64,000 bases of DNA from Planctomycetota bacterium (GTDB lineage: Bacteria > Planctomycetota > Phycisphaerae > FEN-1346), in NCBI GenBank assembly GCA_030602705.1, contig JAUVZF010000009.1:94-64093 (forward strand). Direction: 5' to 3'. The notes below the pieces were generated by a model. That model did no database searches and was not told where the DNA came from. It worked only from the letters and a program-made list of their open reading frames with translations. A program made the position numbers and the translations under genes. Shown in pieces: positions 6,818 through 26,950 of the stretch (positions within the stretch are counted from its first letter, which is position 1; every line of letters begins with the position of its first letter).

Positions 6818-7025
6818 TCGCCGGCGAACGGCGGGGGACGGGCATCCTCTGGCAGCGGCCACGGGCGTGGACCATGGCGAGGCGCAGGCATCTGGCGGGC
6901 GCGGTGGCGGCGTTTCTTGTACCGTTATGGGGCCGCTGAAAACCACACAAAGTGAACGTTATTTCACGATAGTGCCGTTTTCTGCGGGTTTGGGGGGGAG
7001 AAAAAAAGATATCCGCCCGTGCGAT

Positions 7026-7053
7026 TTGACTTTTCCGGGATTTGTGCTATAGT
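7026..7053 (+). promoter_or_regulatory. sigma70-like promoter (TTGACT-16 nt-TATAGT) upstream of PEP-CTERM gene
   Basis: The hexamers and spacer were read directly from gcgatTTGACTtttccgggatttgtgcTATAGTatcacg. Confidence 0.5.
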
Positions 7054-7057
7054 ATCA

Positions 7058-7285
7058 CGTTGGTGCGGAGCAAGGGGCAAGCGGTTTGGGGGGACCGAAC
7101 CGGATGCCCTTTATCCATGTCGCCCAGCAAGGATAGGAGGAGCATAGCACGGGCCCCGTTGTGGGGATACGAGTGGGCCCAGGACCGTTGGCCTTTAGAG
7201 GGAGGCCGGCGGAGCGAAACTGAATAGTTAAGCCGGATTCTTGTGGCGATTTCTGGAGGGAAAGCCTTCGGAGATCGTCTTTTTT
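7058..7285 (+). promoter_or_regulatory. ~225-nt transcribed leader ending in a hairpin (cgatttc...gagatcg) + T-tract; candidate attenuator/riboswitch-like element
   Basis: AT-richer, structured-looking sequence lies between the promoter and ATG 7329. The terminator-like element TCTTTTTT sits at 7278-7285. Confidence 0.3.
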
Positions 7286-7328
7286 GTTGAACGAGCCAGT
7301 CGTTCGGAAAAGGGAAGAGAGGGCGATT

Positions 7329-7967
7329 ATGATGCGTCATGGCAGATGGTTATCAGTCTGTGCCTTCGCACTTGTCATGTTTTATCTTGTCGGACCGGTC
7401 CGGGCGGGCCCGATCGCGAACGGGGTCGGGGCCTTGACCGGATTCTTCGGCACGAGATCCTATACGTTTACCGCAGGGAGCGACACGTTGACCGCCGACG
7501 TCGATTACGCCGTCTACGCGCCGACCGCTTACCCGGGCGACGACCCGTCGACAGGGGCACACTACGTCTATGTCTATCAGATTTTCAACGCTGCGGCGAG
7601 CACGGTGGACGTGGCGTTCTTCAGCGTCGGCCTCGAAGAGGGGAGCGGCGCGGCCAATGCGGGGGACGACACCTCCGCGGGCGCGCCGGGGACCGCGGGC
7701 GGCCAGTCTCCGAGTCTTGAGATGGTCAGCGCAACCAGCGTGTACTGGCTCTTCGACCCGCAGATTGCCCCGGACGCGTTGTCCACGACACTGCTCTTCA
7801 CCAGTCCGTACACTCCGACGTGGAAGAGCGGCGCCATGGCCGACGGCGGTCTTCCGACGCCGGGGAGCGGCCTTCTGCCCTCCCCAACGCCGGAGCCCGC
7901 GACGTTGGGCCTGATGGGCGTGGGCTTGGCGTTTGCCGTTTACGCTCGTGGTCGTCGGCGGCGCTAG
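7329..7967 (+). CDS. PEP-CTERM sorting-signal protein 1 (exosortase substrate)
   Basis: N-terminal signal peptide MMRHGRWLSVCAFALVMFYLVGPVRA. C-terminus PEPATLGLMGVGLAFAVYARGRRRR, i.e. PEP motif + TM helix + Arg cluster. Confidence 0.85.
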   Translation: MMRHGRWLSVCAFALVMFYLVGPVRAGPIANGVGALTGFFGTRSYTFTAGSDTLTADVDYAVYAPTAYPGDDPSTGAHYVYVYQIFNAAASTVDVAFFSVGLEEGSGAANAGDDTSAGAPGTAGGQSPSLEMVSATSVYWLFDPQIAPDALSTTLLFTSPYTPTWKSGAMADGGLPTPGSGLLPSPTPEPATLGLMGVGLAFAVYARGRRRR

Positions 7968-8194
7968 CGCCGCTTTTGGCGCCGGGCGCGCCGAAGCGCC
8001 CGGTGGATAGGCAATCGGGGTTTCCCGGGCGATTCGCGGTTTCGTAAGACTTCTCCGACACCGTCGCGCAGAGTTGATTGCTGTGTCCTGATTGAAGGCG
8101 AGAGCGGGACCGGCAAGCGGCTCGTGGCGCGGCGTTTGCATTTTGCCGCTGCCCGGTTGCGCGGGCGTGGCAAGTTTTTCTGGCGAGCGCAGGC

Positions 8195-8279
8195 GGTTGT
8201 AGCGCCGGGCTTTATGCCCGGCGGCCGTTGGCGGCGGCGCCAGCCAGGATGCGCCGGGGATAAACCCCGGCGCTACGGC
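8195..8279. repeat. GGTTGTAGCGCC...GCCGGGGATAAACCCCGGCGCTACGGC MITE-like element, divergent copy A (flanked by 15-bp direct repeat GCCCGGTTGCGCGGG at 8146 and 8322)
   Basis: Shares its termini and the GGGGATAAACCCC core with the copies at 9935..10044 and 41820..41929. Confidence 0.7.
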
Positions 8280-8352
8280 CAAGCCGCAGGAAATCGTCCC
8301 ATGCCGGAAATCGTTGCCGGCGCCCGGTTGCGCGGGCCCTCCGGAAACTCTC

Positions 8353-9765
<1,413 letters not shown>

Positions 9766-19178: not shown

Positions 19179-21860
19179 ATGTGGACACGATGTGCGGCAG
19201 GGCTGCTGGTAGGGGTGCTGCTTGCCCTGGCGGCGCCGGCGTCTGGTGAAGAGGCCGTGCCGGCGAAGCCCGCCCAGGCGGCGATTCCGGCCCAGCCGGT
19301 TGCCGAAAAAGGCGCCGGCCAGGTCTGGGACCTCCCGCCCGAGGTCATGCAGGTGCTGAACCTGACGGGGCTGCAACTCCGCCTGCTCGGACAGGTGTTT
19401 CGCCAGTATGCCTATGAGACGCCGCCACCGCCCAAGGCCGACGCCGCCTTCGGCGTCAAGGTCGATGCGAGCGTACCCGGCGGCCTGTACCGGATGGGTT
19501 CCGGCGGCGACCTTCCCGTCCGGCTGGTTGTGACCGCCTGCTCGACCGGCACGCCCTCGGCCGTTAGCCTTCGCTACCTGGCTCAGGATTTCTACGGGCG
19601 CAAGGTGGCGTCCGGCACGCTGCCGCCGGTCTATCCCGACAAGTTCGGCATGGCTGCGGCCGACCTGATTCTGAAGGAACTGTCGGCCTTTGGCTATTAC
19701 CACGTTCTGGTCACGGCAACCCGCGAGGGGCGCAGCGTCACGGGTTGGTGCGGCGTTGCGGTCGTGCATCCGTTGCCCGAAGGCCCCGACCCGAAGAGCC
19801 CGTTTGGGTTGGTGGCGCCGCCGGGGAAGATGTCGGCCGACGTGCCGCCGGTCTGCCGCCGGCTCGGCGTCGGCCATCTGGCGTTCGACTGGACCGGCGA
19901 CGAGGCGGCCGCCCGCGCTGCGGTCAAAGCGGGCCTGGTTCCGTTGGCCATCGTTGGGCTGGAGATTCCTCAGCACAGCCCCGCCGCTGACGACTTTTCC
20001 TCGACGATGAGCGACGCGATTGCGCGGCGCGTCGAGACGGTGGCGGACTGGCAGATCGGCCGGCGGCCGGTTTTCGCCCCCGGCGCGTTGGCCGAGGCCG
20101 CCGCCTCGTATCGGCAGGCGATCTCGGGTCTGATTCAGGGTGTCCGGCGGCGGGAGACACCGGCTCGGCTGTGGGTGGCCGCCTCGCCCGACGCACTCGC
20201 CGGCGTTCTCACGGAAGGGCCCGTCCTGGCGGGCGCCGACGGCGTCAGCCTGTACGTCGATGCGGGCGCGCGTGAGGCGAACCTAAGGAGCGGCGCCTAC
20301 CGGCGCTCGCTCGACTATGGCATCCAGGTGGCCCGAAGATTGGGCATCGAGCGGACCGTCATCGGCACCGGCGACGACCCGTCGGTCCACTTGCCGCAGC
20401 GACAGGCGTGGAAACTGGTGACCCGCCACATCGTCTCGTTGGCGGCCGGCGCCGAGCGCGTCTACGTCTCGTGGGGCCGCGGGCTGCCCACGCCCGTCTC
20501 TTCGGCCGCCGCCTACGCCTGGATGACTCATCTGCTGGACGGCGCCATCTACGAAGGCGATGCCTGGGCCGGCGTGCCGCTGATCGAGGCACACCTGTTC
20601 TCCGGCCCTGAACGGCGTGCGGCTGTGGTCTGGTCGTGGGTCGGGACCGACCCGCAGGCTCCGGACCGGGGCCTGTTGGTCTTTGACGACGGCCTGGGGC
20701 TGGAGGCGCTGGACGTGGTCGGTCAGCCTGTGGCCATCTGGAAGGGCAGACAACTGATCGTCCCGTTTGGCGAGGCGCCCGTTTACCTGGTCAGCGGCGA
20801 ACTGAGCGTCGGCCGGATGCGCGAGCGCCTCCGCAAGGCGAGGATTCTGGGCGTCGGTCCCGCCACGGTCCGCATCGAAAGCATCATCCGCGGCGGCATC
20901 CCGGGCAAGGTGAACGTAACCCTCTGGATTCAGAGCCACCGGCCGCACAAGCAGGAGGGGGTAGCGGGGTTGCTGTTGCCGGAGGGCTGGCGGGCCAGGC
21001 AGGGCAAGCGCCGGTTCCGGTTGGAGGCGGGCCAGGTACGCGAGGTTACCTTCGAGTGCGACGTGGCCGCCGACGCCGGTCGCGGACCGTATGCGATTGA
21101 GGCCGTCGTTTCGCTCGACGAGCAATACGTCCGGTGCAGTCAGAACGTGTGGCCGGCCCAGACGGTCGAGCGGACGATCGAGGTCGGCTACGGCCTGGCG
21201 GACTGGGAGGGCATCGAGCCGGTCGTTCTGGAGGATGCCGGCGGCGACGTGTGGGCCGAGGTCCGGACGGCCTGGGACAAGGAGTTCTTCTACTTCTCGG
21301 CCGCCGTCCGGCGCAAGCGCGGTACGTTCAAGGCGGGCACGCACGCTTTCGGGGGCGATGCCGTCCAACTTGCGTGGGGCCTTTCAAGGCGGGCCGACGA
21401 CGACTTCGGCCACAAGGCGAAAGACTTGGCCTTGCCGGCCGGCGCGTTTCGCGATACCGACCACCTGATGGCACTGACGTTCGGCCGCGACGGGGCCGCC
21501 GTGGTTCGCCTTCGCGCCCCTCGCGTGGCCCTGCGGACCCACTGGCCGGGCAACCAGGACGGTTGGTACGGCCCGGTGGAAGGGGCCGTGGCCGACATCG
21601 CACGCGATCAGGCCATCGGGTACACGCTGTTCGAGGCGGCGATCCCGATGAAGGAACTGGCGCCGCTGAAGGGGGCGCGCGGCCGGATCTTCCGGTTCGG
21701 GTTCCGCATCGGCAACGGCGACGGCCGGCCGCTGGAATGGTCGCGGACGGCGGGGGTGCCCGACTACCTCGCCAACCCGTGCAGTTTCCTGCCGGCGTCG
21801 CTGGCCGACGGCCTGCCGTGCCAGACGTGGTGGGGAATGACGGGGGAGAAACAGCAATGA
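19179..21860 (+). CDS. large secreted hypothetical protein (possible glycoside-hydrolase-like with C-terminal carbohydrate-binding-like domain)
   Basis: Signal peptide MWTRCAAGLLVGVLLALAAPASG. ~890 aa. The domain call is weak. Confidence 0.6.
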   Translation: MWTRCAAGLLVGVLLALAAPASGEEAVPAKPAQAAIPAQPVAEKGAGQVWDLPPEVMQVLNLTGLQLRLLGQVFRQYAYETPPPPKADAAFGVKVDASVPGGLYRMGSGGDLPVRLVVTACSTGTPSAVSLRYLAQDFYGRKVASGTLPPVYPDKFGMAAADLILKELSAFGYYHVLVTATREGRSVTGWCGVAVVHPLPEGPDPKSPFGLVAPPGKMSADVPPVCRRLGVGHLAFDWTGDEAAARAAVKAGLVPLAIVGLEIPQHSPAADDFSSTMSDAIARRVETVADWQIGRRPVFAPGALAEAAASYRQAISGLIQGVRRRETPARLWVAASPDALAGVLTEGPVLAGADGVSLYVDAGAREANLRSGAYRRSLDYGIQVARRLGIERTVIGTGDDPSVHLPQRQAWKLVTRHIVSLAAGAERVYVSWGRGLPTPVSSAAAYAWMTHLLDGAIYEGDAWAGVPLIEAHLFSGPERRAAVVWSWVGTDPQAPDRGLLVFDDGLGLEALDVVGQPVAIWKGRQLIVPFGEAPVYLVSGELSVGRMRERLRKARILGVGPATVRIESIIRGGIPGKVNVTLWIQSHRPHKQEGVAGLLLPEGWRARQGKRRFRLEAGQVREVTFECDVAADAGRGPYAIEAVVSLDEQYVRCSQNVWPAQTVERTIEVGYGLADWEGIEPVVLEDAGGDVWAEVRTAWDKEFFYFSAAVRRKRGTFKAGTHAFGGDAVQLAWGLSRRADDDFGHKAKDLALPAGAFRDTDHLMALTFGRDGAAVVRLRAPRVALRTHWPGNQDGWYGPVEGAVADIARDQAIGYTLFEAAIPMKELAPLKGARGRIFRFGFRIGNGDGRPLEWSRTAGVPDYLANPCSFLPASLADGLPCQTWWGMTGEKQQ

Positions 21861-22257
21861 CGAATGACGAAATCCGAATGACGAATCAAACGACAAGATC
21901 GAATGCCGAATGACAAAACGCGAGAGGCGTGATGTGCTGCTGTGGGAGTTGTTTTGGTGTTCGTCATTGCTGTTTCGTCATTCATTCGTCATTCGGGCTT
22001 CGTCATTCGGCATTGTAGTTGTAAGGCAGTTTCCTGCCGGTGTCGCTGGCCGACGGCCTGCCGTGCCAGACGTGGTGGGGAATGACGGGGGAGAAACAGC
22101 AATGACGAATGACGAATCAAACGACAAGATCGAATGCCGAATGACAAAACGCGAGAGGCGTGATGTGCTGCTGCGGGAGTTGTTTTGGTGTTCGTCATTG
22201 CTGTTTCGTCATTCATTCGTCATTCGGGCTTCGTCATTCGGCATTGTAGTTGTAAGG
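21782..22257. repeat. tandem duplication (245 + 231 bp) comprising the last ~75 nt of the upstream CDS plus a GACGAATG-type MITE (TIR CAATGACGAATGACGAA / TTCGTCATTCGGCATTG)
   Basis: The two units are near-identical. The second lacks a 14-nt ATCCGAATGACGAA. The stop codon of the CDS lies at the MITE junction. Confidence 0.85.
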
Positions 22258-22265
22258 GGGTTTCC

Positions 22266-23060
22266 ATGCGCTTGGTGCGTTTCCTCGTGGACGGCCAGGT
22301 CCGCTACGGGGTGCTTGAGGGTGACCGGGTGCGGGAACTGTTGCGGCCGTTCTTCGAAGGGCTCGTGCCCATGAACGCGGCTCATCCGCTGGCCGACCTC
22401 GAGTTGCTTGCCCCGTCGCGCCCGTCAAAGATGCTCTGTGTCGGCCTGAACTACCGCGATCACGCCGAAGAGATGGGCGAGCCCATTGGCGATGAACCCG
22501 TCTTGTTTATGAAGCCGACCACCGCGCTGGCCGCACACGGCCAGCCGATCGTCTATCCGAAGATGGCCGGCCGCGTCGATTACGAGGCCGAACTGGCCGT
22601 GGTCATCGGCCGCCGCTGCCGGAGCGTGGCGGTGGAGGAGGCCGACGACTTCATCCTCGGCTACACGTGTTTCAACGACGTGACGGCCCGCGACCTTCAG
22701 GCGAAGGACGGTCAGTGGACCCGCGCGAAGGGGTTCGACACGTTCGGCGTCATGGGGCCGTGGATCGAGACCGACCCCGGCGACACCGGCCGCCTGACCG
22801 TCACGAGCCGCCTGAACGGCGACGTGCGCCAGCAGTCCACCACCGCGCAACTCGTTTTCAGTTGCCGCGACCTGGTGTCCTGGGCCAGCCGCATCATGAC
22901 GCTCGAGGCCGGCGACGTCATCGCCACCGGCACGCCTGCCGGCATCGGGCCGATGCAGCCGGGCGACCAGGTCGAGGTCGAGGTCGAAGGCATCGGCACG
23001 TTAAAGAACCCCGTCGTCGCGGAACCCGACGACGGGGCGGAGGCGGTTACGGTTCGGTAG
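22266..23060 (+). CDS. fumarylacetoacetate hydrolase (FAH)-family protein (2-keto-4-pentenoate hydratase / YcgM-like)
   Basis: LCVGLNYRDHAEEMG, EAELAVVIG and GTPAGIG motifs. Confidence 0.8.
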   Translation: MRLVRFLVDGQVRYGVLEGDRVRELLRPFFEGLVPMNAAHPLADLELLAPSRPSKMLCVGLNYRDHAEEMGEPIGDEPVLFMKPTTALAAHGQPIVYPKMAGRVDYEAELAVVIGRRCRSVAVEEADDFILGYTCFNDVTARDLQAKDGQWTRAKGFDTFGVMGPWIETDPGDTGRLTVTSRLNGDVRQQSTTAQLVFSCRDLVSWASRIMTLEAGDVIATGTPAGIGPMQPGDQVEVEVEGIGTLKNPVVAEPDDGAEAVTVR

Positions 23061-23115
23061 GGGTTTTGTGTTGCCGCGTGCCCACTGGGACAGCAGCGTG
23101 GCCTTGCCGTTCGGC

Positions 23116-24255
23116 TTATGCCGGCGTTTCGAGAGATTGACGAATCAGCGGCGCGGCTTGCTCGAATTGCGCGAGGCTACTGATGTTGAGTGCCAACTTG
23201 CAATTGCCCCACCTTTGACTGGAAACATCCCGGGCAAAGGATGGTGGCTGTTCCATGCGCGCATATTTTAGTCTGAGATAAAGTACAACGCTGTGCTGCT
23301 GGATAACCATGTAACAGAAGGTTCCCTTCAGGCGTGGACCGCGTGCGGCGCAACCGTAGGCAACGTAGATTTTGAGAACTCTCTTTTCAATGGCCCCCGG
23401 CCGGAGAGACAGACAAAACCGATCGATTGCTCGGTAAAGTTCAACAACCTCCTGAGGCTTGCCTGCCAAGTGCCGGCCTTCGTCGTATGGGACTTGGGTT
23501 GCCCCTCTCCCGGGGGGTTGCCGGATTTCTGAAACGGGCGATGTCGGGGGAGTGGTGCGCACGCCTTGCGTCGGTAGTGCGGTTTTACCACAGATTCGGG
23601 CGAGACTTTCTCGTATCTTGCGGGGCTTGAGATCGTCGTCACCGGTGGCCTTTCGCACAAGGTTAAGAAACGCTGTTGGCGGGTTGCGCATAAGGGTGTC
23701 AAGGGCTTTGCGTATTTTACCGTCCGTGAACGTCTGCTCGCCGATTGGGCCCAAGGTGCCTTTAGCCATTCCGTCTTGTGAGAAGCGCCACATCAGACGC
23801 GCCAAGTCTTGAACGGAGATTTCTTGGGAGTCGCGTGGGTCCAGCGAAACCTCGTACATGAGTTTATCCGGGGCGGGGCATTTCTCAACGCTGCGGTAAA
23901 CCTTCCACTTCACGCCGTTGGTGAGAACGCACCAGACGATACCGTCGTTGGCCGCGTAACCCACAACCTGGGTGATGGCCTTGACATCGTTCAAGGGGTC
24001 GTCAAGCGCCTTGGCTTCGACCAGGAGTACGGGCTTGCGGTTGATCTTGAGGGCATAGTCCACCGACTTGCCGTCAACTGTGGGGTATTCCAACTCTACC
24101 TCGTCCGGGTCGCGCACGTCCCAGCCTAATGCTTCAAGGAGGGGATCAATTATGATCGTTCGAGTGGGGGTTTCTTTCAGCGCATGCTTCCGGAGCGTGC
24201 CGAGTTTGGCGCGGACGCTCTCGATGGTTTGAATTAGTTCATTCATCTCGCCCAT
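23116..24255 (-). CDS. restriction-endonuclease-like protein: N-terminal HsdR_N / PD-(D/E)xK nuclease domain (D...VEAK) + uncharacterised C-terminal domain; sits in a low-GC (~55%) single-gene island
   Basis: TRTIIIDPLLEALGWDV...DYALKINRKPVLLVEAKALDD is an HsdR_N-type motif (recalled, not searched). The local GC is clearly lower than in the flanks. Confidence 0.65.
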   Translation of the reverse strand: MGEMNELIQTIESVRAKLGTLRKHALKETPTRTIIIDPLLEALGWDVRDPDEVELEYPTVDGKSVDYALKINRKPVLLVEAKALDDPLNDVKAITQVVGYAANDGIVWCVLTNGVKWKVYRSVEKCPAPDKLMYEVSLDPRDSQEISVQDLARLMWRFSQDGMAKGTLGPIGEQTFTDGKIRKALDTLMRNPPTAFLNLVRKATGDDDLKPRKIRESLARICGKTALPTQGVRTTPPTSPVSEIRQPPGRGATQVPYDEGRHLAGKPQEVVELYRAIDRFCLSLRPGAIEKRVLKIYVAYGCAARGPRLKGTFCYMVIQQHSVVLYLRLKYARMEQPPSFARDVSSQRWGNCKLALNISSLAQFEQAAPLIRQSLETPA

Positions 24256-24419
24256 CCTCCGGGTTCAAATTGGGAGCCAAGACCCAAGGCCATTCTTCAA
24301 GGTTATAGCCTGACGGATCAATGTCAAGTGGCAGTGCCTTCACTCGGCGCGCCCCCGCCTTTGGCCTTGTCCAGCGCCGCGGTTCCTCGTATCATTTCGC
24401 CTTCCTTGGGAGGCTCACG

Positions 24420-26060
24420 ATGCGACGGCACGCGCAAATCCGGCGTTACCTGACGGCGTTCGACACGGCCCGTCTTCCGCAGGTGTTTACCGACGTGCTG
24501 ATCATCGGCAGCGGCGTGGCGGCGCTGCGGACGGCGCTGGAGGTGGCGCCCGCGCTGCGGGTGGCGCTGGTGACGAAGAGCGGCCTGACCGAATCGAACA
24601 GTTACTATGCTCAGGGCGGCATTGCGGCCGCCATCGCTCCGAAGGACTCGGTCGAGAGCCACGTGGCCGACACGCTGGCCACGGGCTGCGGCCTGTCGGA
24701 CGAGGCGGTCGTCCGGCAGGTGGTCGAGGCGGCGCCGGAGTGCATCCGTGAACTCGTCGATTGGGGCGCCGACTTCGACAAGACCGACGGCCGCATCAGC
24801 GTCGGCCGCGAGGGCGGGCACTCTGCGCCGCGCATCGTCCATGCGCGCGGCGATGAGACCGGCAAGGAGATCACCTCTATGCTCCTGGCCGGCGTCATCC
24901 GCAACGGAGCCATCGACATCTATGAGAACACCTTTGTCATCGACCTGCTCGCGGTCGACGGGGCCGTCGTGGGCGTCCTGGCATGGCACCCGCGGCACGG
25001 GATACTGATTGTGCGGGCCAAACGGACGGTGCTGGCGACCGGCGGCCTGGGCCGCGTTTACCGCGAGACCACGAATCCGGAGGTGGCCACCGGCGACGGT
25101 CTGGCGATGGCTTACCGGGCGGGGGCGGTGCTGAGCGACCTGGAGTTCGTCCAGTTCCATCCGACCACGCTTTACATCGCCGGCGCCAGCCGCCACCTGA
25201 TTTCCGAAACGGTGCGCGGCGAAGGCGGGCGGCTGGTTGACAAGACCGGCAGCGCCTTCATGCACGCCTACCACGAGATGGGCGACCTGGCGCCGCGCGA
25301 CGTCGTCAGCCGCGCCATCGTCGATCACATGCGCGCCACCGGCGCCACGAACGTTTTTCTCGACCTGACGGGGTTAGGGACGGGCGTGCGCGAGCGTTTT
25401 CCCGGTATCGCGAAGGCGTGCGCGCGGTTCGACATCGACATCGCCCTCGACCTCATTCCCGTCCGCCCGAGCGCTCACTACATGGTGGGGGGTGTCCGGG
25501 TGGACGCCTTCGGGCGCAGCAGTTTGCGTCATCTTTACGCCGGCGGCGAGGCGTCCTCGACCTGGCTGCACGGGGCGAACCGGCTGGGGTCGAACAGTTT
25601 GCTCGAGGGGCTGGTCTACGGCCGCGTGATCGGCCGCCACATTGCGGAGGACCTGGCAGGCGCCTCGTCCCGCGGCGCGGACGCCGGCGGGGCGCCCGAA
25701 CGGGTCTACAGCGACGCCACCCCCTCGACGCGCGGCGAACTGCATCTGCCGGACGTGCGGGACAGCCTTCGGTCGCTCATGTGGCGATACGTGGGCATTG
25801 CCCGCAACGAAGAGGACCTGACCGAGGCCGACGCCCTCATCGAGTTCTGGCAGAGTTACGTTCTGGACAAGGTGTTCGAGGAGTCGGTCGGATGGGAACT
25901 CCAGAACATGCTGGCCCTCGGCCGCCTCATGGCCTGGGCGGCGCTGTCGCGGACCGAGACGCGCGGCGTGCATTTCCGGTCGGACTACCCGGAGCGCGAC
26001 GACGAGCACTGGGCCAGGCACGTCCTGATAGCGCGCGACACCGAGCCGTGGTTCGAGTGA
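24420..26060 (+). CDS. nadB: L-aspartate oxidase
   Basis: FAD motif DVLIIGSGVAAL. HARGDETGKEI. C-terminal RSDYPERDDEHW. Confidence 0.9.
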   Translation: MRRHAQIRRYLTAFDTARLPQVFTDVLIIGSGVAALRTALEVAPALRVALVTKSGLTESNSYYAQGGIAAAIAPKDSVESHVADTLATGCGLSDEAVVRQVVEAAPECIRELVDWGADFDKTDGRISVGREGGHSAPRIVHARGDETGKEITSMLLAGVIRNGAIDIYENTFVIDLLAVDGAVVGVLAWHPRHGILIVRAKRTVLATGGLGRVYRETTNPEVATGDGLAMAYRAGAVLSDLEFVQFHPTTLYIAGASRHLISETVRGEGGRLVDKTGSAFMHAYHEMGDLAPRDVVSRAIVDHMRATGATNVFLDLTGLGTGVRERFPGIAKACARFDIDIALDLIPVRPSAHYMVGGVRVDAFGRSSLRHLYAGGEASSTWLHGANRLGSNSLLEGLVYGRVIGRHIAEDLAGASSRGADAGGAPERVYSDATPSTRGELHLPDVRDSLRSLMWRYVGIARNEEDLTEADALIEFWQSYVLDKVFEESVGWELQNMLALGRLMAWAALSRTETRGVHFRSDYPERDDEHWARHVLIARDTEPWFE

Positions 26061-26065
26061 AACAA

Positions 26066-26098
26066 TTTCGGATTTCGGATTTCGGATTGCGGATTGGC
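26066..26098. repeat. heptanucleotide microsatellite (ATTTCGG)x4-5
   Basis: Read from atttcggatttcggatttcggattgcggattgg. It lies ~150 bp upstream of the CYTH gene start. Confidence 0.85.
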
Positions 26099-26823: not shown

Positions 26824-26849
26824 CCCGGCCGCCGGGATCGCGGGTCTGA

Positions 26850-26948
26850 GATCGCCGATTTCAGATTTCAGATTTCAGATCTCAAATCCCAAATCTCAGA
26901 TTTCAGATCTCAGATTTCAGATCTCAAATCTCAGATTCCAGATTCGCG
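26850..26948. repeat. heptanucleotide microsatellite ~14 units (CAGATTT/CAGATCT/CAAATCT)
   Basis: Read from gatttcagatttcagatttcagatctcaaatcccaaatctcagatttcagatctcagatttcagatctcaaatctcagattccagatt. Confidence 0.9.
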
Positions 26949-26950
26949 GT

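Follow-up and report, generated by a model that had tools for sequence, protein, structure and literature searches.

The 64,000-nt stretch of the Planctomycetota bacterium contig JAUVZF010000009.1 analysed here (hereafter the window) carries, between a gene for a FAH-family hydrolase and nadB, a single-gene island of 1,359 bp (23061–24419). Its gene, lying on the reverse strand, encodes a protein of 379 amino acids in which an N-terminal HsdR_N/RecB-type PD-(D/E)xK nuclease head is combined with a C-terminal DUF5655 domain. The interpretation favoured here, with a probability of about one half, is that the gene was acquired horizontally and encodes a restriction-type nuclease that acts alone and as a single chain, its DUF5655 domain directing the head to foreign, probably modified DNA. 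Horizontal transfer would have brought the gene into a variable slot between the FAH gene and nadB; DUF5655 would serve as a DNA-reading module for some feature that foreign DNA displays, with a base modification as the likeliest candidate, and would tether the nuclease head, which would then cut nearby, as in type IV fusion enzymes. A host without the recognised mark would be spared, and hence no cognate methyltransferase would be needed.

Nuclease head and DUF5655 domain

Residue numbers follow the 379-residue open reading frame (ORF); the AlphaFold model of the whole protein has a predicted local distance difference test (pLDDT) score of 84. In this model, the N-terminal nuclease module (residues 1–225; 23581–24255, reverse strand) comprises two N-terminal helices, a PD-(D/E)xK core (residues 53–137) and a helical sub-domain (residues 148–225), predicted with a pLDDT of ~90. 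Profile searches, alignments and modelling show a predicted nuclease of the HsdR_N/RecB type with a complete active site. The HSDR_N family (PF04313) matches residues 55–121 with 38.9 bits against a gathering threshold of 25.1 (E = 1.1e-9), and the PADLOC model REase_MTase_IIG matches residues 5–131. The catalytic motif D66 ... E80-A-K82 (VDYAL ... VEAK; 24010–24060, reverse strand; codons verified) is invariant in 33 sequences, as are Q96 and Y100 of the QxxxY motif characteristic of RecB/HsdR-family nucleases (23956–23970, reverse strand). All of these residues align to ADY...EAK...QQAKDY of the HsdR fragment 3h1t, and we take D66, E80-x-K82 and Q96...Y100 to be the catalytic motifs I–III plus QxxxY, comparable to the RecB-family motif of EcoR124I HsdR.

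Foldseek searches with residues 1–225 returned DrdV (7lo5), BpuSI (3s1s), HsdR (3h1t) and EcoR124I HsdR as the best matches, where the probabilities for 7lo5, 3s1s and 3h1t reached 0.99–1.0 but the E-values were just 4e-3 to 1e-2. A PDB sequence search with the window protein revealed nothing significant, the best relevant match being HsdR 3h1t (E = 0.96), and Mrr_cat (PF04471) gave no match to this protein at E <= 1. The first-pass annotation of the window, made from its sequence, had likened the N-terminus to type I HsdR or Mrr-type nucleases and had asked whether the catalytic D/E and K residues are present on alignment; the HsdR_N part of that proposal stands, the Mrr-type part is not supported, and D66, E80 and K82 are intact.

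The separate C-terminal domain that the same annotation had placed after the head is also real and is best assigned to DUF5655. The two are joined by a predicted disordered linker (residues 226–255; 23491–23580, reverse strand; pLDDT < 50), which has ~9% identity to other family members; the alignment indicates that the linker of the window clade is shorter and less basic and is devoid of the basic KAWxTRR stretch present in most homologs. The DUF5655 domain (residues 256–379; 23119–23490, reverse strand), delimited by PDC-S18 and Pfam models and by structure prediction, is predicted to adopt a compact alpha/beta "double-wing"-like fold. On the window protein, DUF5655 (PF18899) scores below threshold (14.8 bits, cut-off 24, E = 0.031); PF18899 is precomputed on many full-length homologs (56–65% identity), and the domain aligns throughout with that of the window protein. 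Modelled alone, it attains a pLDDT of 90 and a predicted template modelling (pTM) score of 0.83.

In Foldseek searches, the domain resembled YjbR (2fki; probability 0.99, template modelling (TM) score 0.50–0.54) and DR2400/DUF419 (2a1v; probability 0.93, TM score 0.56–0.59, root-mean-square deviation 3.2 Å over 107 columns), with further fold matches to VP1028, the C-terminal domain of T4 MotA and DUF1801. The likeness is at the level of the fold, no significant sequence similarity of the domain to YjbR/DUF419, DUF1801 or MotA having been detected. For YjbR, DNA binding through a double-wing fold has been proposed, and fusions of it with nucleases and EVE domains are known (PMC7641849). The C-terminal ~120 residues of the window protein match both PADLOC models of PDC-S18 (E = 2.3e-15 and 2.1e-12) at profile positions 204–322 of 365 and 188–301 of 302, leaving the N-terminal ~200 model positions uncovered; with a match limited to the C-terminal third of the models, the window protein is not a full PDC-S18 member. 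PDCs are candidate systems, most of which have not been validated (PMC12988326). A word-indexed homolog search with the DUF5655 domain alone yielded seven DUF5655 fragments and no new architectures.

A survey of 104 cluster representatives sharing the N-terminal module indicates which domains may take the place of DUF5655. DUF5655 itself forms the C-terminus in 33 representatives according to Pfam and in 45 according to the PDC-S18 model; RAMA was found in 17, DUF4357 and Mrr_N in four each, DUF4268 in three, and HARE-HTH and the C-terminal domain of SeqA (SeqA-C) in two each. SeqA-C binds methylated GATC. In work on type IV fusion enzymes, RAMA, wH/Mrr_N and HARE-HTH have come under discussion as sensors of modification, and experiments have shown single-chain reader–nuclease fusions to belong to the modification-dependent enzymes of type IV (PMC11037411). 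The exchange of DUF5655 for RAMA, SeqA-C, Mrr_N and HARE-HTH among relatives of the head supports a single-chain modification-dependent nuclease, and, taken with the YjbR-like fold, it places DUF5655 in the position of a reader domain with a fold of the DNA-binding type. By this analogy and by the modelled fold, DUF5655 may read a DNA modification.

The same replacements bear on another possible function, that of an abortive-infection or toxin-type nuclease, in which the signal sensed by DUF5655 would not be a base modification but, for example, a small molecule, a phage protein or a DNA structure, and would lead to the release of a non-specific head. The solitary gene and the flexible two-domain build would agree with such a role, as would the match of the C-terminal domain to PDC-S18, a "guilt-by-embedding" candidate, and the very high conservation of the head would suit an effector that is not sequence-specific. 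However, the domains replacing DUF5655 in relatives are readers of DNA or modified DNA and not protein sensors, and the fold family of DUF5655 is DNA-binding; a toxin-type nuclease is considered rather unlikely.

Several observations weigh against a modification-dependent restriction nuclease. The nuclease core (residues 26–140; 23836–24180 in the window) shows 83–88% identity between sequences assigned to different phyla (52–60% for the C-terminal domain family-wide), a degree of conservation that is uncommon in restriction enzymes and for which the proposed mechanism offers no explanation. HsdR_N heads are best known from the type I and type IIG classes, whose substrate is unmodified DNA. 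The fold matches of DUF5655 are weak (E-value 0.018 at best, TM score 0.5–0.6); DNA binding by YjbR is a structural prediction, and YjbR is not a demonstrated modified-base reader. The HsdR_N + DUF5655 architecture is visible in databases, and no member of the family has been experimentally characterised; the literature searched names DUF5655 in a single paper of no relevance here, never as a reader, and contains no mention of PDC-S18. Finally, the PADLOC and neighbour surveys described below did not place the homologs visibly in defence islands.

The window copy itself bears traces of selection and of change in the C-terminal domain. Between the window and L002, a homolog located at the same genomic site (see below), the ratio of nonsynonymous to synonymous divergence (omega) is 0.32 for the N-terminal module and 0.24 for the C-terminal domain, and the linker is unconstrained; these ratios indicate that both domains are under purifying selection. 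In comparison with the syntenic L029 and L048, the N-terminal module has 73–74% identity, similar to that of the flanking genes (74–76% for FAH and nadB), but the C-terminal domain has just 48–49%. The window clade alters five positions that are conserved at >=90%, four of them in the loop of residues 347–353 (23197–23217, reverse strand), which lies between two strands in the model and reads QRWGNCK where the family has GHWGxGD; the changes G347Q, H348R, G352C and D353K affect positions conserved at >=90% in 30 other members. This clade also has a 6-residue insertion and a more basic C-terminal domain (+8 versus −2 to +4). The pattern fits a change of reader specificity followed by purifying selection, and the remodelled loop may mark an altered specificity in the lineage of the window.

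Acquisition of the gene at a variable site

The island extends from the stop codon of the FAH gene to the start codon of nadB and contains one real ORF (23116–24255, reverse strand, stop codon included). Its GC content, 0.570, is the lowest among 627 overlapping 1,359-bp segments of the 64 kb (mean 0.665, standard deviation 0.022); for the nuclease gene alone, the value is 0.562, and 400-bp segments across the gene give 0.56–0.58 against 0.66–0.72 on both sides. At third codon positions, the GC content (GC3) is 0.637 in the nuclease gene versus 0.83–0.88 in four neighbouring genes. The composition and gene content that had been noted from the sequence, namely a GC content of about 55% and a single 379-residue gene between a FAH-family gene and nadB, together with the quoted N-terminal peptide, proved correct.

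The state of this site in relatives was surveyed by scanning metagenome contigs with the FAH protein and locating the genes of the window in the matches. Empty slots, with FAH and nadB adjacent, were found in L095 (93% and 94% identity to the FAH and nadB proteins of the window, gap ~180 bp), L098, L099, L102, L105, L106 and L108, and the slot is likewise empty in L096 (FAH 86%, gap 60 bp). The nuclease gene occupies the slot in the window, L002 (FAH 89%), L029 (FAH 76%) and L048 (FAH 74%). In L097 and L107, the slot holds unrelated cargo, a 520-aa secreted protein (6888–8450) and a 260-aa acidic repeat-like protein (6913–7695), respectively, neither belonging to an NCBIfam family. The closest relative found by its flanks, L095, is without the nuclease gene; the blastn homology between it and the window ends exactly at the FAH stop (23060) and restarts at the nadB ATG (24420), and no direct or inverted repeats bounding the island and no target duplication at its boundaries were found. 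L095 and the filled L002 originate from one metagenome. The empty-site intergenic region of L095 (970–1150) has a pair of imperfect, GC-rich palindromes, GCGCGGCGGGTCTGGAGTACCCGCCGCG ... GCGCGGTGGGTACGGAGACCCACCGCGC, which is REP-type-like and unrelated to the island of the window.

Since relatives carry empty sites, other cargo or the nuclease gene, the island is real and horizontally acquired, and the unrelated cargo in L097 and L107 makes the slot a variable hotspot and not a nuclease-specific site. Filled and empty states are interleaved relative to flank divergence, so that several losses or several gains are needed. The horizontal acquisition suggested in the first-pass annotation is, therefore, strongly shown by the empty sites in close relatives, the anomalous composition and the homologs (46–61% identity) in more than 15 phyla, archaea included. 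The synonymous divergence (dS) between the window and L002 is 0.157 for the nuclease gene and 0.446 for the adjacent FAH gene (267–1400 and 1468–2256 in L002, respectively); for this one gene pair, the low value suggests either a more recent exchange of nuclease alleles between the lineages or constraint on synonymous sites.

These observations also bear on two further explanations. A housekeeping nuclease of DNA repair or recombination would agree with the very conserved head and with flanking genes that are mostly housekeeping, but the presence/absence polymorphism at the same site among close relatives, the lack of cross-lineage synteny, the foreign composition and the patchy distribution over phyla make it highly improbable. 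Even less credible is a selfish, homing-type endonuclease gene that spreads by cutting empty sites. Such a gene would account for a single-gene insertion in the same intergenic slot in several lineages and for the disrupted methyltransferase gene that adjoins it in a sister clade (see below); however, no intron or intein context, terminal repeats or target duplication was found at the boundaries, L097 and L107 have cargo of other kinds in the slot, and the insertion sites differ in other lineages.

The true start of the nuclease is probably the second ATG, encoding M4 (24244–24246), which would give a protein of 376 residues: a GGAGG sequence lies at 24256–24260, 9–10 nt upstream of this ATG, the public gene call for the identical protein (P0001) has 376 residues, and all aligned homologs begin there. 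A promoter-like element read from the sequence (24300–24327, reverse strand) consists of TTGACA (24322–24327) and TATAAC/TAACCT (24300–24307); it was not called by a consensus promoter scan, and the TTGACA...TATAAC arrangement is kept upstream of the nuclease gene in L002, L029 and L048, which is consistent with a promoter role.

Profile matches confirm both flanking assignments. The FAH-family hydrolase gene (22266–23060, forward strand; FAA_hydrolase, E = 1e-73) is convergent with the nuclease gene, and nadB, encoding L-aspartate oxidase (24420–26060, forward strand), is divergent from it; the equivalog TIGR00551 matches the latter with 543.5 bits (cut-off 452.75), and the real start of nadB is at ~24420 and not at 24321. 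Repeats occur on both sides of this segment. A low-GC (~0.54) tandem duplication lies between a 914-aa NPCBM_assoc gene and FAH (21781–22265); it is composed of 91-nt and 160-nt units with a spacing of 231–245 bp and 98–99% identity, its first copy overlaps the final ~80 nt of the upstream NPCBM_assoc gene, and the units hold nested inverted repeats based on AATGACGAATGACGAA. An intergenic heptanucleotide array (TTTCAGA/TCTCAGA/TCTCAAA, ~15–17 units) follows a CYTH gene (26831–26949), and a related motif, TTCGGATTTCGGATTTCG, is found after nadB (26067–26084).

Family distribution, gene neighbours and a methyltransferase stump

The family is large: 1,140 clusters at 90% identity match the window protein at E <= 1e-3, the best 120 of them being >=56% identical and alike in length and architecture, and an exhaustive search of 50%-identity representatives gave 108 clusters at E <= 1e-30 and 1,716 at E <= 1e-10. 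Database names include "type I restriction endonuclease", "DUF5655 domain-containing protein" and [quoted passage not shown]. Full-length homologs from species-representative genomes (46–61% identity) occur, among others, in Planctomycetota, Verrucomicrobiota, Armatimonadota, Chloroflexota, Thermotogota, Acidobacteriota and Proteobacteria, and, among the archaea, in metagenome-assembled genomes (MAGs) of Methanosarcinales and Methanophagales. All 80 listed homolog loci are metagenome-derived (nearly all from MAGs), so single taxon labels carry a risk of binning errors; the diversity of the genomes is nevertheless real, because the GC content of the flanks spans 0.35–0.70. Across 88 loci, the GC content of the gene averages 5.6 points below that of its flanks.

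An origin of the gene from phages was considered and rejected, as phage records carry just ~200-aa head-only relatives with 25–35% identity. These relatives, annotated as "endonuclease", are found in temperate phages of Thermus, Porphyromonas, Clostridium and others. Linear plasmids of Borrelia/Borreliella encode distant full-length homologs (~20–21% identity over 97% of the query) named "type I restriction endonuclease".

No neighbour recurs across lineages in 84 loci. MsbA-like ABC transporters and GltD-like oxidoreductases formed the sole recurring clusters, but they belong to large generic families and were rejected as partners. Neither the island nor, as recurrent neighbours, 31 diverse homolog loci contain a helicase, methyltransferase or specificity partner, which extends to the homologs what had been noticed for the window. 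Among 243 neighbours from these 31 loci, PADLOC detected scattered singletons, for which no background rate is available and no enrichment is claimed: a type IIG restriction–modification (RM) system in L054 and, not assigned to a locus, a DRT reverse transcriptase, one or two MTase_II, PDC-S01 and PDC-S24. The remaining matches are generic, mad3/mad8 corresponding to ABC ATPases and PycC to a cyclase domain. In the first-pass annotation, consistently housekeeping surroundings of homologs had been named as evidence against a defence nuclease, and the flanks are indeed mostly housekeeping genes; this is judged not to be decisive, since the flanks vary by locus and the presence/absence polymorphism puts the nuclease gene outside any housekeeping operon.

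In a sister clade, the gene has a peculiar neighbour. In L050 (6642–7100), L020 (9624–10004) and L014 (9592–10008), the ORF abutting the nuclease start corresponds to just the N-terminal quarter of a DNA methyltransferase of the beta-class N6_N4 type, covering profile positions 1–58 of 221 of PF01555; decayed versions of this stump are present in L004, L018, L019, L024 and L031, and the window has none. The stump also occurs in other genomes (L175, 5001–5411; L176, 702–1124; L177, 5001–5441; L178, 5001–5441; L179, 4001–4453), and the nuclease gene is absent from L175–L177. A search with the stump consensus returned 2,686 matches, the best 120 all being 107–165 aa long, 84–94% identical and distributed over many phyla. 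The conserved ORF of ~130–160 aa has host-like GC3 and evolves under purifying selection (omega 0.04–0.27, dS 0.4–1.9); the break points differ between copies, and no 3' methyltransferase half, as judged by motif I (DPFxGSG), was found within ~5 kb of the stump.

The cargo downstream of the stump varies by genome and in some genomes is this nuclease. Elsewhere a DUF2806 protein follows, with a GC3 of 0.46 compared with ~0.8 for the flanks, or the stump precedes a probable RM pair, in which a 164-aa ORF comes before a protein of 502 aa bearing the EPTCGVGAF...NPPW motifs of gamma-class N6A methyltransferases. The other cargos consist of small ORFs, either together with a transposase or including a weak Mrr_cat match. 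The arrangement can be read in two ways: foreign cargo may repeatedly have displaced the 3' portion of a methyltransferase gene that is otherwise conserved, or the stump may be a functional leader or partner for the downstream cargo.

The stump is relevant to a further alternative, a classical type II-like endonuclease, blocked by modification, whose methyltransferase partner has been lost. The truncated N6_N4 methyltransferase ORF directly upstream of the gene in the sister clade is compatible with such a loss, and HsdR_N heads do serve type I and type IIG enzymes. On the other hand, an intact methyltransferase is neither adjacent in the window nor recurrent across the 31 surveyed loci, and an orphan cutter of unmodified DNA would be lethal, whereas the gene is intact, under purifying selection and very widespread. 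The persistence of the nuclease without a working adjacent methyltransferase argues against a modification-blocked enzyme, and the stump, which precedes unrelated cargo elsewhere, is not a dedicated partner of the nuclease. This alternative is thus regarded as improbable.

If DUF5655 reads modified DNA, as in the interpretation favoured here, the HsdR_N head with a double-wing reader would represent a new type IV architecture. With at least 1,140 clusters at 90% identity, the family is abundant in many phyla, uncultured Planctomycetota among them, and could supply enzymes for DNA-modification mapping. A head that exchanges DUF5655, RAMA, SeqA-C, Mrr_N and HARE-HTH would offer a comparative series on specificity set by the reader. 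The locus itself is a clean natural single-gene defence-type island with filled, empty and differently filled alleles in closely related populations. It is a tentative and rather doubtful suggestion that DUF5655 constitutes an unrecognised reader class driving a single-gene restriction family spread across phyla by horizontal gene transfer; on the same reading, the nuclease of the sister clade would be one of several interchangeable cargos, and the stump could mark or join a new exchange site for defence cassettes.

Comparison with known systems

HsdR (3h1t), EcoR124I HsdR, BpuSI (3s1s) and DrdV (7lo5) share with the window protein the HSDR_N family and the D...ExK and QxxxY motifs, and they are the best fold matches of its head. 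What sets the window protein apart from these type I and type IIG enzymes is the lack of a superfamily 2 (SF2) helicase motor, of methyltransferase and specificity domains and of HsdM/HsdS partners; at just 376–379 residues, it continues after the head with a helical sub-domain and DUF5655. Pfam and NCBIfam revealed no helicase domain in the protein, the HsdR equivalog models scoring 11–13 bits against cut-offs of 550–729, and no adjacent hsdM or hsdS was found, the island consisting of one gene and the homolog loci having no such recurrent neighbour. Given the absence of the motor domains and of the HsdM/HsdS partners, the window protein is not a type I HsdR. A Zymomonas HsdR_N–HsdM fusion described in the literature was rejected as not comparable.

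The double-wing domains of YjbR/MmcQ (DUF419), DUF1801 and MotA, the best fold matches to residues 256–379, differ in context, being mostly standalone small proteins or transcription-factor domains. Mrr is likewise a solitary PD-(D/E)xK nuclease with a DNA-binding domain, and some relatives of the head carry Mrr_N; apart from the missing Mrr_cat match, however, the domain order is reversed, the nuclease coming first in the window protein. McrBC, considered for the N-terminal domain of McrB, differs in its dependence on a GTPase motor and on McrC as a nuclease subunit of its own. As in type IV systems, the nuclease stands without a cognate methyltransferase, the sister clade having at most the truncated stump adjacent to it. 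The PD-(D/E)XK-wH type IV fusions of the DpnI family (PMC11037411) share with the window protein the single chain of nuclease and putative reader, the lack of a cognate methyltransferase and the solitary gene; the window protein, as known here from sequence and models, differs in having a DUF5655 double-wing domain as its predicted reader and a head of the HsdR_N subfamily.

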